64,000 nt of DNA from Capsulimonadaceae bacterium (GCA_965277095.1 OZ255718.1:3295594-3359593), one strand, 5' to 3'; shown: positions 1,014 to 59,621, counted from the first letter of the stretch. Program-made: numbers and translations. Notes: generated by a model not told the origin, from the letters alone.

Positions 1014-1188
1014 TCCTATTGCTGGCGTTCTCGTAAGCGTTTTGGAGTTTGGTTGTCGGCTTTTGGCTTGCGTTCTTTGTGAAAAGCTATCCGTCGTGTT
1101 TGTTGGGGTAAAGTATGTAGGAATTGCGGTGTAGGGAAGTGAGCGTTTGGGCGTCGGTTTCTGTATCCCGTTTGCGCTCCCGGCAGTA
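1014..1188 (+). other. ORF-less cassette, family B copy 1/6
   Basis: no frame-conserved ORF; shares TGCTGGCGTTC..TTTGGAG..GGTAAAGTA..GAGCG core with 5 other cargos; near-identical to 42516-42690 and 50098-50272. Confidence 0.6.
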
Positions 1189-1288
1189 GCCTAACAATGC
1201 GCTGCACCTGACGCCAGTAGCCGCCTCTACCCCAGCGTTATCGGAAGGCAGGTTAGGCTACTGTCGCCGGTGAGCTATGGCGTTAGGC
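1189..1288 (+). repeat. attC site 3
   Basis: R''=GCCTAAC; R'=GTTAGGC. Confidence 0.9.
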
Positions 1289-1331
1289 CGCAGGGCCGTA
1301 TTCTATTTTGTAGCGGAAGCCAGATGGACAA

Positions 1332-1454
1332 ATGAAGAAAATTAAGCCTTTCTGGTATCATGTCCTCGTTTGGCTTGCCGCTCTGACGATTGCTATACTT
1401 TTGGTTATGTTGGTACTGCTGGCTGGGATTACTTCGGGTAGGCGGCATATTTAG
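1332..1454 (+). CDS. micro-ORF, 40-aa single-TM peptide
   Basis: own translation MKKIKPFWYHVLVWLAALTIAILLVMLVLLAGITSGRRHI; only ORF in a 195-nt cargo; below ORF-track cutoff. Confidence 0.35.
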   Translation: MKKIKPFWYHVLVWLAALTIAILLVMLVLLAGITSGRRHI

Positions 1455-1483
1455 TGCCTTGTCCAAAGCCTTGCCAGCCTGCG

Positions 1484-1582
1484 GTCTAACAATGCGCTGC
1501 ACCTGACGCCAGTGGCCGCGTTCACTCGTGCTTGGCATTATGCTGTGCAGGCCACTGTCGCAGGTGAGCTAGGTCGTTAGGC
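1484..1582 (+). repeat. attC site 4
   Basis: R''=GTCTAAC; R'=GTTAGGC. Confidence 0.9.
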
Positions 1583-1622
1583 TGCGGCACGGGGACTGGC
1601 TCTGTCCAGTGAGGCAAACAGA

Positions 1623-1997
1623 ATGGAAAACCAGAGTATTACGGCAAACGATCTGAAATGGCTGCATTCTGGTACTTCACGCAGTTGGATAATGGGAGTG
1701 TTTTCTGTCGCCTTTTTTCTGGGCATGAGTTTTCTGCATTTCTGCCTTGCTGCTGCTTGGGCAAGGCTGGCTGGCATAACCCTTTCCCAAGCTTGGCAAG
1801 GCTGGTTGAGTGGTATCAGTCCAAATCAGCAATATGCTGGCATTTATCTAAAGGCAATGGAGCAATTTGATGCCTGCGGGATGTTATTGGTTTTTGCCGT
1901 TTTCAGTTCGGCTATGTGTTTTCTAAACCGATACGAGCGTGAGCGTAAGGTTCGGTTGTTGGCAGTGATCGTCGGGCAGGGACAGGCCGCAGCCTAA
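1623..1997 (+). CDS. membrane protein (124 aa)
   Basis: ORF track; hydrophobic segments; stop TAA lies inside attC R''. Confidence 0.6.
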   Translation: MENQSITANDLKWLHSGTSRSWIMGVFSVAFFLGMSFLHFCLAAAWARLAGITLSQAWQGWLSGISPNQQYAGIYLKAMEQFDACGMLLVFAVFSSAMCFLNRYERERKVRLLAVIVGQGQAAA

Positions 1998-2081
1998 CAA
2001 TGCGCTGCACCCGACGCCGGTAGATAGCCTCTCTTGGTTCTTTAGCCATGTCCCCGGCGCGGGTGAGTTTTGGCGTTAGAT
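1992..2081 (+). repeat. attC site 5 (short 90-bp subtype)
   Basis: R''=GCCTAAC; R'=GTTAGAT. Confidence 0.85.
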
Positions 2082-2255
2082 CGCTTGCGGCAAAAGGCTA
2101 CAGGCAAACACCGAAACTTTGGCGGCATCGTTCAGAATAGGGGCTTTGCTTTTTCGTTTCGGCTGTGCTATTATTCAGGAAATTAGTCGGGTGCTTATAG
2201 GGTCATCCGGCAGTCGGAGGCGCTCTCGTTGTCGCTCTCGTTCGGGGGGCAAGCC
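2082..2255 (+). promoter_or_regulatory. ORF-less cassette, family A copy 1/21
   Basis: TCGCTTGCGGCAAAAGGCT..CCGAAACTTTGGC..GGCTTTGCTTTTTCG..GCTGTGCTATTATTCAGG..GGCAAGCC; frames not conserved between copies. Confidence 0.7.
2146..2174 (+). promoter_or_regulatory. putative sigma70 promoter inside family A cassette (worked example)
   Basis: TTGCTT (2146-2151), 17-nt spacer, TGc-TATTAT (2169-2174); same arrangement in 17 of 21 copies. Confidence 0.45.
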
Positions 2256-2347
2256 ATCTAACAATGCGCTGCACCTGACGCCGGTGGTAAGGCTTTCCTG
2301 TCTCACTTCCGCGTTTGCACCGGCGCAGGTGAGCTATGGCGTTAGGT
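2256..2347 (+). repeat. attC site 6 (short subtype)
   Basis: R''=ATCTAAC; R'=GTTAGGT. Confidence 0.9.
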
Positions 2348-2411
2348 CGCAAGGCGCAAGCGGAACAATACTCGAAAGGTGGAAACCCCAAAATTGGAAC
2401 ATGATGTGCCG

Positions 2412-2495
2412 ATGGGTGCTGGCACAGTTTTGGGCGGGATCGTTTTAATCTATCTCATAGTACGCGCATTGGTCTATTTAGTTATCCGCAAGTAA
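2412..2495 (+). CDS. possible micro-ORF, 27-aa TM peptide
   Basis: own translation MGAGTVLGGIVLIYLIVRALVYLVIRK; no clear SD; only hydrophobic ORF in 204-nt cargo. Confidence 0.2.
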   Translation: MGAGTVLGGIVLIYLIVRALVYLVIRK

Positions 2496-2551
2496 ATAAG
2501 CGCCCCAGTGGTATCATATTCTGGTTATAGGCAAACGCTACTACACTTGCA

Positions 2552-2651
2552 ACCTAACAATGCGCTGCACCTGACGCCAGCGGCGCGGTTATCGTGTGCT
2601 TGGCGGGAGTCAAGTGCGTGCCGCTGTCGCAGGTGAGCTAGGTCGTTAGGT
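2552..2651 (+). repeat. attC site 7
   Basis: R''=ACCTAAC; R'=GTTAGGT. Confidence 0.9.
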
Positions 2652-2705
2652 CGCTTGGCATAGAGTTTGCCTGTTTACGAAGTGAGAGAAGAACATGAGG
2701 ACAAG

Positions 2706-57778: not shown

Positions 57779-57872
57779 CAATGCGCTGCACCCGACGCCA
57801 TCGCCCGCCTTTTCGGGTGGGTTATCGCGGGGCTTGCTTGGGCGCTGTCGCGGGTGAGCTAGGGCGTTAGAC
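57773..57872 (+). repeat. attC site 113
   Basis: R''=GTCTAAC; R'=GTTAGAC. Confidence 0.9.
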
Positions 57873-57914
57873 CGCTGGGCGGGAGGCTTTTTTGTCGTCG
57901 TCGGAGGTGAAGGG

Positions 57915-58037
57915 ATGCTTTGGCGAAAACTCTTGGGACTAGGCATTGGCCTCGGTCTTGGCAACTTATTTATGAACTGCTTTCGTGGCAACATCATTGG
58001 GGAACAGCATTTGAGCATTCATTCTTCCAAGCGATAG
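57915..58037 (+). CDS. micro-ORF (40 aa), possibly a frameshifted small membrane protein
   Basis: GGAGGTGA SD 4 nt upstream; MLWRKLLGLGIGLGLGNLF..; another frame continues ..FFQAIALFAAWLLLKPRLPAV into the attC TAA. Confidence 0.3.
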   Translation: MLWRKLLGLGIGLGLGNLFMNCFRGNIIGEQHLSIHSSKR

Positions 58038-58081
58038 CCTTGTTTGCGGCTTGGCTCTTACTTAAACCACGCCTGCCAGCA

Positions 58082-58181
58082 GTCTAACAATGCGCTGCAC
58101 CTGACGCCACCTGCCGCGTTCACCTGTGCAAGTTCGGTTGCCTTACTTGGCAGGTGTCGCAGGTGAGCTATGGCGTTGGGC
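58082..58181 (+). repeat. attC site 114
   Basis: R''=GTCTAAC; R'=GTTGGGC. Confidence 0.9.
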
Positions 58182-58236
58182 CGCAGGGCGTCAGCCTTGT
58201 GCGAGACAATGCGCCGCTGAGGCGCAATGATTTAAC

Positions 58237-58644
58237 ATGGATGAAAAACGCAGCACAGACGAAGAAACAGCACAAAGTTTAGAGCCGAAAATCTGGCCGC
58301 CGCCTCCAACGCAATACCTACCGATGCCAACGGAAGCACAATCTTCCATCACAAAGACACTGCCATACATACTTTATGGTCTGGCAGGTGTGATGGCACT
58401 AATAGGAATGTTCTATGGGCTGGCTTTCATAGGCCGTGCTGATACCGACGAAGAATATCAACAGTTACATGGCGCACTTCGCCTCAGTTTATTAGCTTGG
58501 GGAACAACAAGTGCTTTGTTTTTGACTGCAAACTTGATTTTAACAAAGAGTTGGCTGGGTCGGGTTTTCTGGGTTGTTTTTATAGCTATTGTTTGGTTAT
58601 TTCTTTACCCAGCCTTTGCAATGCGTATGAGCAGCAGTCATTAG
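58237..58644 (+). CDS. membrane protein with N-terminal WPPPP motif (135 aa)
   Basis: ..AQSLEPKIWPPPPTQYLPMP.. then 3-4 TM segments. Confidence 0.6.
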   Translation: MDEKRSTDEETAQSLEPKIWPPPPTQYLPMPTEAQSSITKTLPYILYGLAGVMALIGMFYGLAFIGRADTDEEYQQLHGALRLSLLAWGTTSALFLTANLILTKSWLGRVFWVVFIAIVWLFLYPAFAMRMSSSH

Positions 58645-58681
58645 GCAGAATAGACTACTACGACAGCCCATCCAGCCTGCG

Positions 58682-58781
58682 GCCCAACAATGCGCTGCAC
58701 CCGACGCCAGCAGCCGCATTTACTAATACGAGGCAATATGTTGGTTTAGGCTGCCGTCGCAGGTGAGCTATGGCGTTAAGC
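58682..58781 (+). repeat. attC site 115
   Basis: R''=GCCCAAC; R'=GTTAAGC. Confidence 0.9.
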
Positions 58782-58824
58782 CGCTTCACCGCAGACCTGT
58801 CAACAGCGAAGGCTAGATGAAACC

Positions 58825-59085
58825 ATGTTCTGGCTTGAAAAGGTGCTATATCTGGGAGAAGTCATTCACGATTATGGCTGCGTGTCTGAAGTGAAAAGGA
58901 TAGCGTCCACAGAAAAAACAGAGGCGCTCCATTGTCGGCGTAACGGGCAGGAATACATCATACTTCGTATCACAGTTTCTGGCTGGTTTGGCTTCTATAT
59001 TACCTATTCCTACCTCTCTTTCGGAGCGATTGAGTCGTTGCGAAAAGTTCTGAGTGACATAGCCTCACCCACGGAAGCGGCCTAA
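58825..59085 (+). CDS. hypothetical protein (86 aa)
   Basis: ORF track; stop in attC. Confidence 0.5.
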   Translation: MFWLEKVLYLGEVIHDYGCVSEVKRIASTEKTEALHCRRNGQEYIILRITVSGWFGFYITYSYLSFGAIESLRKVLSDIASPTEAA

Positions 59086-59179
59086 CAATGCGCTGCACCC
59101 GACGCCAGTAGCTGCCTTCACATCTGCGTTAGCGGAGGGTATACTTGGCTACTGTCGCGGGTGAGCTAGGTCGTTAGAT
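59080..59179 (+). repeat. attC site 116
   Basis: R''=GCCTAAC; R'=GTTAGAT. Confidence 0.9.
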
Positions 59180-59351
59180 CGCTTGCGGCAAAAGGCTGTC
59201 TGCAATCGCCGAAACTTTGGCGGCATCGTTCAGAACGGGGCTTTGCTTTTTCTTTTCGGCTGTGCTATTATTCAGGAAATTGGTCGGGGGCTGTGGGGTC
59301 ATCCGATTGTCGGGGGCGTTCTCGTTGTCGCTCTCGTCCGGTGGGCAAGCC
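59180..59351 (+). promoter_or_regulatory. ORF-less cassette, family A copy 21/21
   Basis: TGcTATTAT present. Confidence 0.7.
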
Positions 59352-59453
59352 ATCTAACAATGCGCTGCACCCGACGCCAGCAGCCGGCCATATGCTTTGC
59401 GTTATCGGCGGGCTTGCTTCGGCTGTTGTCGCCGGTGAGCTATGGCGTTAAGC
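59352..59453 (+). repeat. attC site 117
   Basis: R''=ATCTAAC; R'=GTTAAGC. Confidence 0.9.
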
Positions 59454-59621
59454 CGCAAATGCTGGCGTTCGCATCTGCCTTTGAGAAGTTTCGTCAGCAT
59501 CGGGTTTCTGCTCTTGGGTGAGGCCATCCGGCGTGGTTATTATGGTAAAGTATGCAGGAATGGCTGGGGTAGTCAGCGAATTATCGTAGGTTCCCCTATC
59601 CCATCTTGCTTACCCTTTGCG
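59454..59621 (+). other. ORF-less cassette, family B copy 6/6 (divergent)
   Basis: most similar to 12945-13116; ATGGTAAAGTATG. Confidence 0.55.

Follow-up and report, generated by a model that had tools for sequence, protein, structure and literature searches.

A family of short gene-less integron cassettes with a conserved promoter-like box in a giant Armatimonadota integron

The 64-kb stretch of DNA analysed here (C1:3295594-3359593 in the 4.01-Mb genome of a Capsulimonadaceae bacterium; in the following, the window) is over its entire length one section of a giant chromosomal integron array in a genome of the phylum Armatimonadota, and the present analysis concerns a family of short cassettes without genes, called family B, that recurs in it. 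The motif CTAACAATGCGCTGCAC occurs 124 times in the window, every time on the plus strand and against an expectation of 0.3, and each occurrence opens one of 124 attC sites of 85-103 nt that are closed by GTGAGCTATGGCGTTA. The attC sites of this integron have the form (G/A/C)YCTAAC...GTTAGRY over the same 85-103 nt, with R'' (RYYYAAC) and R' (GTTRRRY) motifs bounding the cassettes in a single orientation as is characteristic of integron gene cassettes. Chromosome-wide, there are 489 attC sites of this type, all on the plus strand and in two arrays, of which only the first is associated with an integrase and an attI site. Together both arrays make up about 7% of the 4.0-Mb chromosome.

C1:3275437-3276426, minus strand: integron integrase IntI (TIGR02249, 447.7 bits, cutoff 265), followed by array 1
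C1:3277330-3406091, plus strand: array 1, 239 cassettes, 129 kb, adjoining the integrase
C1:3736500-3885799, plus strand: array 2, 248 cassettes, 149 kb, beginning beside polysaccharide-export genes and without an adjacent integrase

Cutting the window at the attC limits and clustering the 122 inter-attC cargos by all-against-all blastn resulted in a family A with 21 members and a family B with six, the latter located exactly at the sites (1014, 12945, 18851, 42516, 50098 and 59454) where a first-pass annotation, made from the sequence alone, had placed six related cargos lacking an open reading frame (ORF). All six are present and belong to a single family, as their cargos (173-180 nt) align over the full length with a mean column identity of 83%. 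Cargo limits are counted here from the base following GTTA and hence start 3 nt before the positions given in that annotation.

1011-1190 (180 nt), plus strand: family B copy 1, box GGTAAAGT at 1107-1114 preceded by GG, attC at 1191-1285
12942-13118 (177 nt), plus strand: family B copy 2, a divergent subtype, box GGTAAAGT at 13039-13046, attC at 13119-13204, family A cassettes on both sides, before and after
18848-19026 (179 nt), plus strand: family B copy 3, box at 18943-18950, attC at 19027-19113, preceded by a family A cassette
42513-42692 (180 nt), plus strand: family B copy 4, box at 42609-42616, attC at 42693-42787
50095-50274 (180 nt), plus strand: family B copy 5, box at 50191-50198, attC at 50275-50368, preceded by a family A cassette
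59451-59623 (173 nt), plus strand: family B copy 6, a divergent subtype, box at 59544-59551, attC at 59624-59721, preceded by a family A cassette

Genome-wide clustering of 487 cargos assigned 64 copies to family A and 36 to family B. A 37th copy of family B is the first cassette after attI (C1:3277151-3277329), which is the position where integrons insert new cassettes. The set obtained with a sequence-only covariance model is identical, with all 37 copies on the plus strand and inside the arrays. The cargos are 173-181 nt long and are followed by an attC of about 95 nt, and together families A and B account for one fifth of the approximately 490 cassettes. The copies of family B are scattered individually among unique cassettes rather than forming duplicated blocks or segmental duplications, many of them are 93-100% identical, and their attC centres fall into a few types that are common to unrelated cargos and shuffled relative to the cargo subtype. 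In sum, family B consists of minimal integron cassettes that carry no gene and have been amplified.

With respect to cargo length, 108 of the 487 cargos (e.g., window 1011-1190, 2079-2257 and 29213-29384) fall into the class of 165-185 nt, only two are shorter, and the range of 185-250 nt holds only 14. A length of 160-181 nt is shared by at least seven unrelated cassette families, and judging from this sharp lower class a cassette may need to be about 260-275 bp long to be viable.

The distribution of family B was further assessed by the homology searches that had been proposed in the first-pass annotation, and these did not find the family elsewhere. Exact matches to the attC in public genomes come almost exclusively from Armatimonadota (Armatimonadales, Capsulimonadaceae), and of 38 further genomes from the same family, 27 share the attC type, each with 27 sites or fewer. 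Family B was found neither in these 38 genomes by BLAST and the sequence-only covariance model nor by nhmmer in 23 Armatimonadota attC loci, which do contain one A-like cassette and two copies of a further family, D. A strict 23-base pattern had no match in the public metagenome or species-genome contig collections, and matches of a loose pattern in public genome contigs were at chance level (about 280 expected by estimate). Four CTTTGTGATCTTTGTGCGCGTACGTCGTGTTCTTTGTGGTAAAG repeats in a repetitive non-coding region of Roseimarinus sediminis (NZ_JBNPXV010000019.1, 167-230, 1157-1218, 4445-4501 and 4911-4966) resemble columns 50-113 of family B with nhmmer E-values of 4e-5 to 3e-3, and were judged coincidental because TTTGTG-rich DNA was selected by the search pattern itself. 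As far as the searched data reach, family B is private to this genome, which limits the power of covariation tests and keeps alive a reading of the family as a selfish amplification.

Sequence conservation was measured on the 15 copies that are less than 90% identical to one another, which have a mean column identity of 70%. The longest conserved run is the box GGTAAAGT, with eight columns at 14 or more of the 15 copies (p = 0.003, column permutation), and the next-longest, of five columns, lies in a CGTCGTG block about 10 nt upstream of it. A distance of 95-102 nt separates the box from the start of the cargo and one of 72-77 nt from its end, and the box is fixed even in subtypes that differ at 30-40% of the other positions. 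Further conserved blocks are found throughout the cargo (TTTGRGAGTT, GTCGGC, TCTTTGTG, GGAATGGC, GAGCG, GGTT and CTAYCCC). In line with the first-pass annotation, the string TGGTAAAGTA is exact in five of the six window copies and reads GGGTAAAGTA in copy 1; a seventh exact match lies at 60275 inside an unrelated cargo of 506 nt. Of the blocks said there to be shared by all six cargos, TGCTGG and TTTGGAG/TTTGAGAAG are indeed found in each, but GAGCGAGTTATCG is not, being exact in the copy at 18848, near-exact in those at 12942 and 59451 and replaced by GAGCGTTTGGGCG in the other three.

No ORF is common to the family B subtypes. These are separated by indels of 1, 3 and 4 nt, their open frames arise from the A-poor plus strand and change between subtypes, and no ungapped block has a 3-nt periodicity in its variability. 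Because of the broken frames and the missing periodicity a small peptide can be rejected for the family as a whole, and the cargo, like that of a promoter cassette, has no protein-coding gene. Clustering, conservation of the box and the lack of a conserved ORF thus bear out the earlier description of a cassette family that lacks an ORF and is organised around a conserved box.

Searches against Rfam gave no match to family B at the gathering threshold or at an E-value of 1 or below. The consensus fold of 33 distinct copies amounts to -1.8 kcal/mol, and only its terminal pairs covary. This complementarity between cargo start and cargo end is real, but it is common to all cassettes of the integron and hence no feature of family B: the cargo ends extend the R''/R' stem of the attC by about 5-8 nt past the 7-nt cores (mean of 5.2 contiguous complementary bases, the mismatched control having 1.4; e.g., window 12942-12953 with 13108-13118), and the functional attC is therefore longer than by its usual core-to-core definition. 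Column-shuffle z-scores, calculated for both strands of the entire cargo and of either half, range from -1.0 to +0.6, and folding of the presumed transcribed tail is on a par with that of its shuffles (mean z = -0.27), so that covariance analysis, also proposed in the first-pass annotation, revealed no significant conserved RNA structure. A candidate imperfect hairpin lies 3' of the box, with the same register in most subtypes.

42634-42667, plus strand: candidate imperfect hairpin in copy 4, 9+4 pairs, many of them G-U

When built by hand with 13 pairs it is paired in 83% of the cells as compared to 36-52% with the partners slid, and its covariation is not significant (0.220 versus 0.217 shuffled). 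Since the hairpin was derived from the same sequences that test it, it constitutes weak evidence, and family B has neither a covariation-supported structure nor a curated match that would mark it as a structured non-coding RNA. Complementarity of family B to other loci does not exceed chance level, the best matches outside the arrays being 13-18 nt long with chance E-values, and a trans target recognised by complementarity was rejected on these grounds.

In order to judge whether the box might be a promoter, the host's own tRNA genes were taken as a yardstick, 30 of 50 of which have a clear TTGACA-N16-18-TAtAAT promoter. These native promoters read CTTGACA-N17-TAtAAT with a G-rich extension at -15 to -13 (gGGTAtAAT, or TGTGCTATAAT), and their profile (n = 30) has G or T at -15, G at -14 in 24 sites and G or C at -13. 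From -15 to -7 the family B box agrees with the native profile at all positions but -8: TAAAGT is found in 36 of the 37 copies, as is G at -14, and the base before the GG is T in 28 copies (TGG), G in six (GGG) and A in two (AGG), one copy reading TGATAAGGT. Since G or T is allowed at -15, the GGGGTAAAGT of copy 1 is not defective, and the TGn of the extended -10 element proposed in the first-pass annotation is better widened to (T/G)Gn. Extended -10 (TGn) sigma-70 promoters include the TGN-10 variants of the class 1 integron Pc, and the family B box is like these in having T or G at -15, G at -14, TAnnnT and no usable -35, but unlike extended -10 promoters in that the T at -15 is variable and that G occupies -8, which the host's native promoters avoid. 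Only about 0.25-0.5% of cargo positions score as well as the box against the native -10 profile, and coincidence with the most conserved block is therefore unlikely to have arisen by chance (roughly a 0.5% event). In addition, TAnAGT hexamers elsewhere in the chromosome have a -35 of at least 5/6 at 16-18 nt in 8.1% of cases as compared to about 2% in controls, and this fourfold rate suggests that G at -8 is tolerated. Two native tRNA genes (Met at 172689 and Arg at 1949170), read by eye, have TGTGCTATAAT without a recognisable -35. Finally, sense-strand boxes within the native range are present in five of the seven short ORF-less families compared to 16% expected (family A with TGCTATTAT, family C with GGGTACAAT, family D with GGGTATAGT, and families f34 and f69), the best antisense matches being poor. 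Motifs for sigma-54, extracytoplasmic function (ECF), FliA and sigma-B/H-type factors as well as DnaA-box, CRP and LexA motifs were also compared with the box by eye, and none fits across the subtypes.

In turn, a number of observations weigh against a promoter at the box. At 6.2-7.1 bits it lies below every native site (8.4-15.9 bits), G at -8 occurs in none of the 30 native tRNA promoters, and by chance 25-34% of 170-nt cargo stretches would contain a sense-strand match of this quality. Among 34 occurrences of the exact 9-mer outside the arrays, three lie in non-ORF DNA, which equals the background of 8.8%, whereas its TAAAAT and TAAACT versions are enriched there (28% and 21%, respectively); in neither score nor genomic usage does the box match native promoters of the host. 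In agreement with the first-pass annotation there is no acceptable conserved -35: none of the family B copies has one of at least 4/6 at spacers of 15-19 nt, the best match being 2-3/6 in every subtype, and the family hence differs from canonical two-hexamer sigma-70 promoters with a -35 located 16-18 nt upstream as well as from all clear native tRNA promoters. Furthermore, a change to the stronger TAAAAT is absent from all 37 copies, which a plain promoter model would not predict, conservation covers the whole 180 nt and thus extends beyond the region from -60 to +1, and regular spacing of A and B cassettes along the arrays was not found, the spread of the gaps equalling that of permutations. 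An extended -10 promoter remains plausible from the fit to the native profile at all positions but -8, but is not backed by its score or by genomic enrichment.

The first-pass annotation had also pointed to a recurrent pairing of families, with B following A, and four of the six window copies (12945, 18851, 50098 and 59454) do directly follow a family A cassette. Tests over the arrays, however, gave the following numbers of A-then-B adjacencies.

Window: 4 observed, 1.03 expected (p = 0.008)
Array 1: 7 observed, 2.7 expected (p = 0.009)
Array 2: 1 observed, 2.0 expected (p = 0.89)
364 cassettes outside the window (independent test): 4 observed, 3.64 expected (p = 0.51)
Both arrays: 8 observed, 4.7 expected (p = 0.08)

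Since the pairing is absent from the independent remainder of the arrays, the excess in the window is a local fluctuation, and a recurrent pairing is refuted by the standard of adjacency that the annotation itself had set. Adjacent pairs consist of differing A and B subtypes flanked by unique cassettes, and are thus not duplicated blocks.

Family A (64 copies) resembles family B in its size class, its presence in the arrays, its sense orientation and the position of its -10-type box, which lies about 92-97 nt from the cargo start as read from the alignment (95-102 nt in B). It differs in having a usable -35 and a -10 within the native range (TTGCTT-17-TGCTATTAT, 9.5 bits) and, in some copies, a terminator-like hairpin. 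The sequence similarity of family B to A or D is not significant beyond the box (z of 2.5 or less for A). In the family A copy at 50626-50802, TTTACG-17-TGCTATTAT is followed about 40 nt downstream of the -10 hexamer by a hairpin of nine pairs and then a T-run (window 50691-50790), so that at least some family A copies could produce a short RNA of 60-70 nt besides being read into the next cassette. Family D is likewise gene-less and is also present in a related genome (JANXNV010000208.1); its box TGGGGTA(T/G)AGT, located about 39 nt from the cargo end, also has G at -8. Some other cassettes of the short class encode hydrophobic peptides of 32-40 amino acids with plausible ribosome-binding sites (e.g., MKKIKPFWYHVLVWLAALTIAILLVMLVLLAGITSGRRHI).

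C1:3756572-3756747: family D cassette, gene-less (175-176 nt class)
C1:3764355-3764529: family D cassette, gene-less (175-176 nt class)
C1:3825085-3825260: family D cassette, gene-less (175-176 nt class)
Window 1286-1485: short peptide-encoding cassette
C1:3282631-3282804: short peptide-encoding cassette
C1:3857220-3857408: short peptide-encoding cassette

As to the function of family B, the reading that we tentatively favour, while regarding it as somewhat doubtful, is that of a promoter cassette with a weak or factor-dependent promoter on the sense strand. According to this proposal, IntI would move each copy as an individual cassette, and the housekeeping RNA polymerase would read (T/G)GGTAAAGT as an extended -10 promoter without a -35. 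The transcript would begin some 7 nt beyond the box, near the conserved AGGAAT, and run through the remaining 65-70 nt of the cargo and the cassette's own attC into the next cassette; as no terminator-like site was found in the two family B copies scanned, the transcript would be expected to continue into the attC. In this way cassettes could be expressed locally in arrays of 129 and 149 kb that extend beyond the reach of a single promoter at the integrase end. Initiation at the box, the position of the start and the reach of the transcript are all inferred from sequence features, and because the box is sub-optimal any such promoter is probably weak or dependent on a factor binding to the conserved upstream blocks.

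Alternatively, family B might be a selfish or neutral minimal cassette, that is, non-coding filler whose similarity, including that of the box, would mostly reflect recent descent and gene conversion and which would have spread owing to its short size and efficient recombination. The high copy number in one genome only, the attI-proximal copy, the near-identity of many copies (93-100%), the mosaic subtypes with attC centres shuffled against them and the fact that the -10 match of family B alone is not significant are in line with this, as are the 108 of 487 cargos at the lower limit of 165-185 nt, which suggest selection on size and not on content. However, conservation is uneven, with the box fixed while subtypes differ at 30-40% elsewhere, several unrelated short families with sense -10 boxes are not expected from pure drift, and useless cassettes should readily be lost by excision (as argued in PMC11014356), so that we consider this explanation rather unlikely. 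Unlikely, too, is a cis element other than a promoter, in which the blocks TTTGRGAGTT, GTCGGC, TCTTTGTG, CGTCGTG and GGTAAAGT would bind a regulator, a nucleoid protein or a silencer, or which would act within a read-through RNA by processing or stabilising it via the weak hairpin. It would account for conservation over the entire cargo, for an invariant G at -8 that the -10 model does not require and for the un-promoter-like use of the exact box elsewhere in the chromosome, and the downstream hairpin, paired in 83% of cells where slid controls reach 36-52%, is consistent with it. Yet the cargo has no operator-like repeat symmetry, its consensus structure is not significant on the plus or the minus strand (z from -1.0 to +0.6; single-sequence mean z = -0.27), covariation in the hairpin is not significant either, and neither Rfam matches at an E-value of 1 or below nor complementarity to other loci above chance were found.

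The same architecture as in the promoter-cassette proposal would result if the box drove a trans-acting small RNA consisting of the 65-70 nt cargo tail and possibly ending in the attC hairpin. The tail is conserved (GGAATGGC, GAGCG, GGTT and CTAYCCC blocks), and short RNAs are conceivable given the terminator-like hairpin and T-run behind the promoter of some family A copies; but the two scanned family B copies have no terminator-like site, no stable or conserved fold or Rfam match was found, and the best complementarity outside the arrays (13-18 nt, chance E-values) yields no candidate target, which makes a small-RNA gene very unlikely. A tiny or recently decayed coding cassette, e.g., for a hydrophobic peptide of about 30 amino acids stopping at the TAA of the box, appears highly improbable. 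In the commonest subtype a frame reading ...LLGFALSFGSLFVGFWLAFFVKSYPSCLFW does end at this TAA, subtype 2 retains the same frame over its last 19 codons, and neighbouring short cassettes encode membrane peptides of 32-40 amino acids. In another subtype, however, a 1-nt deletion together with an in-frame TGA interrupts this frame (by eye), frames are broken in six to seven copies, which argues against family-wide coding, the subtypes are separated by 1-, 3- and 4-nt indels, there is no conserved ATG with a ribosome-binding site and no 3-nt periodicity in any ungapped block, and the A-poor plus strand easily yields stop-free runs. A broader proposal, which we regard as decidedly unlikely, holds that families A, B, C and D are domesticated regulatory cassettes of about 270 bp that are moved by IntI and jointly set the transcription of a store of genes comprising about 490 cassettes on about 280 kb. 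Family B would be the conditional member, whose TAAAGT promoter without a -35 would be activated by a dedicated factor bound at its conserved upstream blocks. Such a conditional role would explain both the conservation of the whole cargo and the conserved but sub-optimal G at -8.

The favoured reading of family B as a promoter cassette has precedents. In Vibrio superintegrons, gene-less cassettes with sense promoters have been established experimentally, and attC sites there do not act as transcription terminators (Blanco et al. 2024, NAR, PMC11014356). The Vibrio cassettes measure 491-666 bp, some being described as degenerated genes, and that paper also reports that such promoters could not be predicted in silico and cites promoter cassettes in integrons of oral Treponema (Tansirichaiya et al.). 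Family B resembles the Vibrio and Treponema cassettes in being gene-less, in residing in large sedentary chromosomal arrays and in its sense-strand promoter-like site away from the 5' end, and the proposed role, expression of downstream cassettes beyond the reach of Pc, is the same. It is unlike the Vibrio cassettes in its total size of about 270 bp, in forming a 37-copy sequence family with one conserved box and in its Armatimonadota host; moreover, promoter activity was measured for the Vibrio cassettes, but is predicted from sequence for family B.

Large chromosomal integrons pose the question of how cassettes remote from the integrase-end promoter are expressed, and integrons of the phylum Armatimonadota have hardly been studied. 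If family B does initiate transcription, the arrays carry dedicated and mobile promoter modules in multiple copies; if the broader proposal of a class of regulatory cassettes were true, integron arrays would be self-organising expression systems built from mobile promoters. If, on the contrary, no transcription starts from family B, the 180 conserved nt and the invariant GGTAAAGT in them point to a cis function of another kind or to a selfish mini-cassette, an outcome that would bear on the limits to cassette size and spread.

With respect to the region around the integrase gene, an ORF for 155 amino acids without an NCBIfam match lies between intI and attI.

C1:3276423-3276890, minus strand: 155-amino-acid ORF directly upstream of intI, overlapping the intI start by 4 nt

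Two 26-nt direct repeats (TGGGATAGGCTGAAA..GCAGTCTA) at the intI-attI interval resemble integrase-binding sites. Finally, the conserved 3' end GAGCTATGGCGTTAG of most attC sites (e.g., window 998-1010) contains an ATG which, on the A-poor strand, opens spurious ORFs of 25-65 codons into many cargos and could mislead gene callers.

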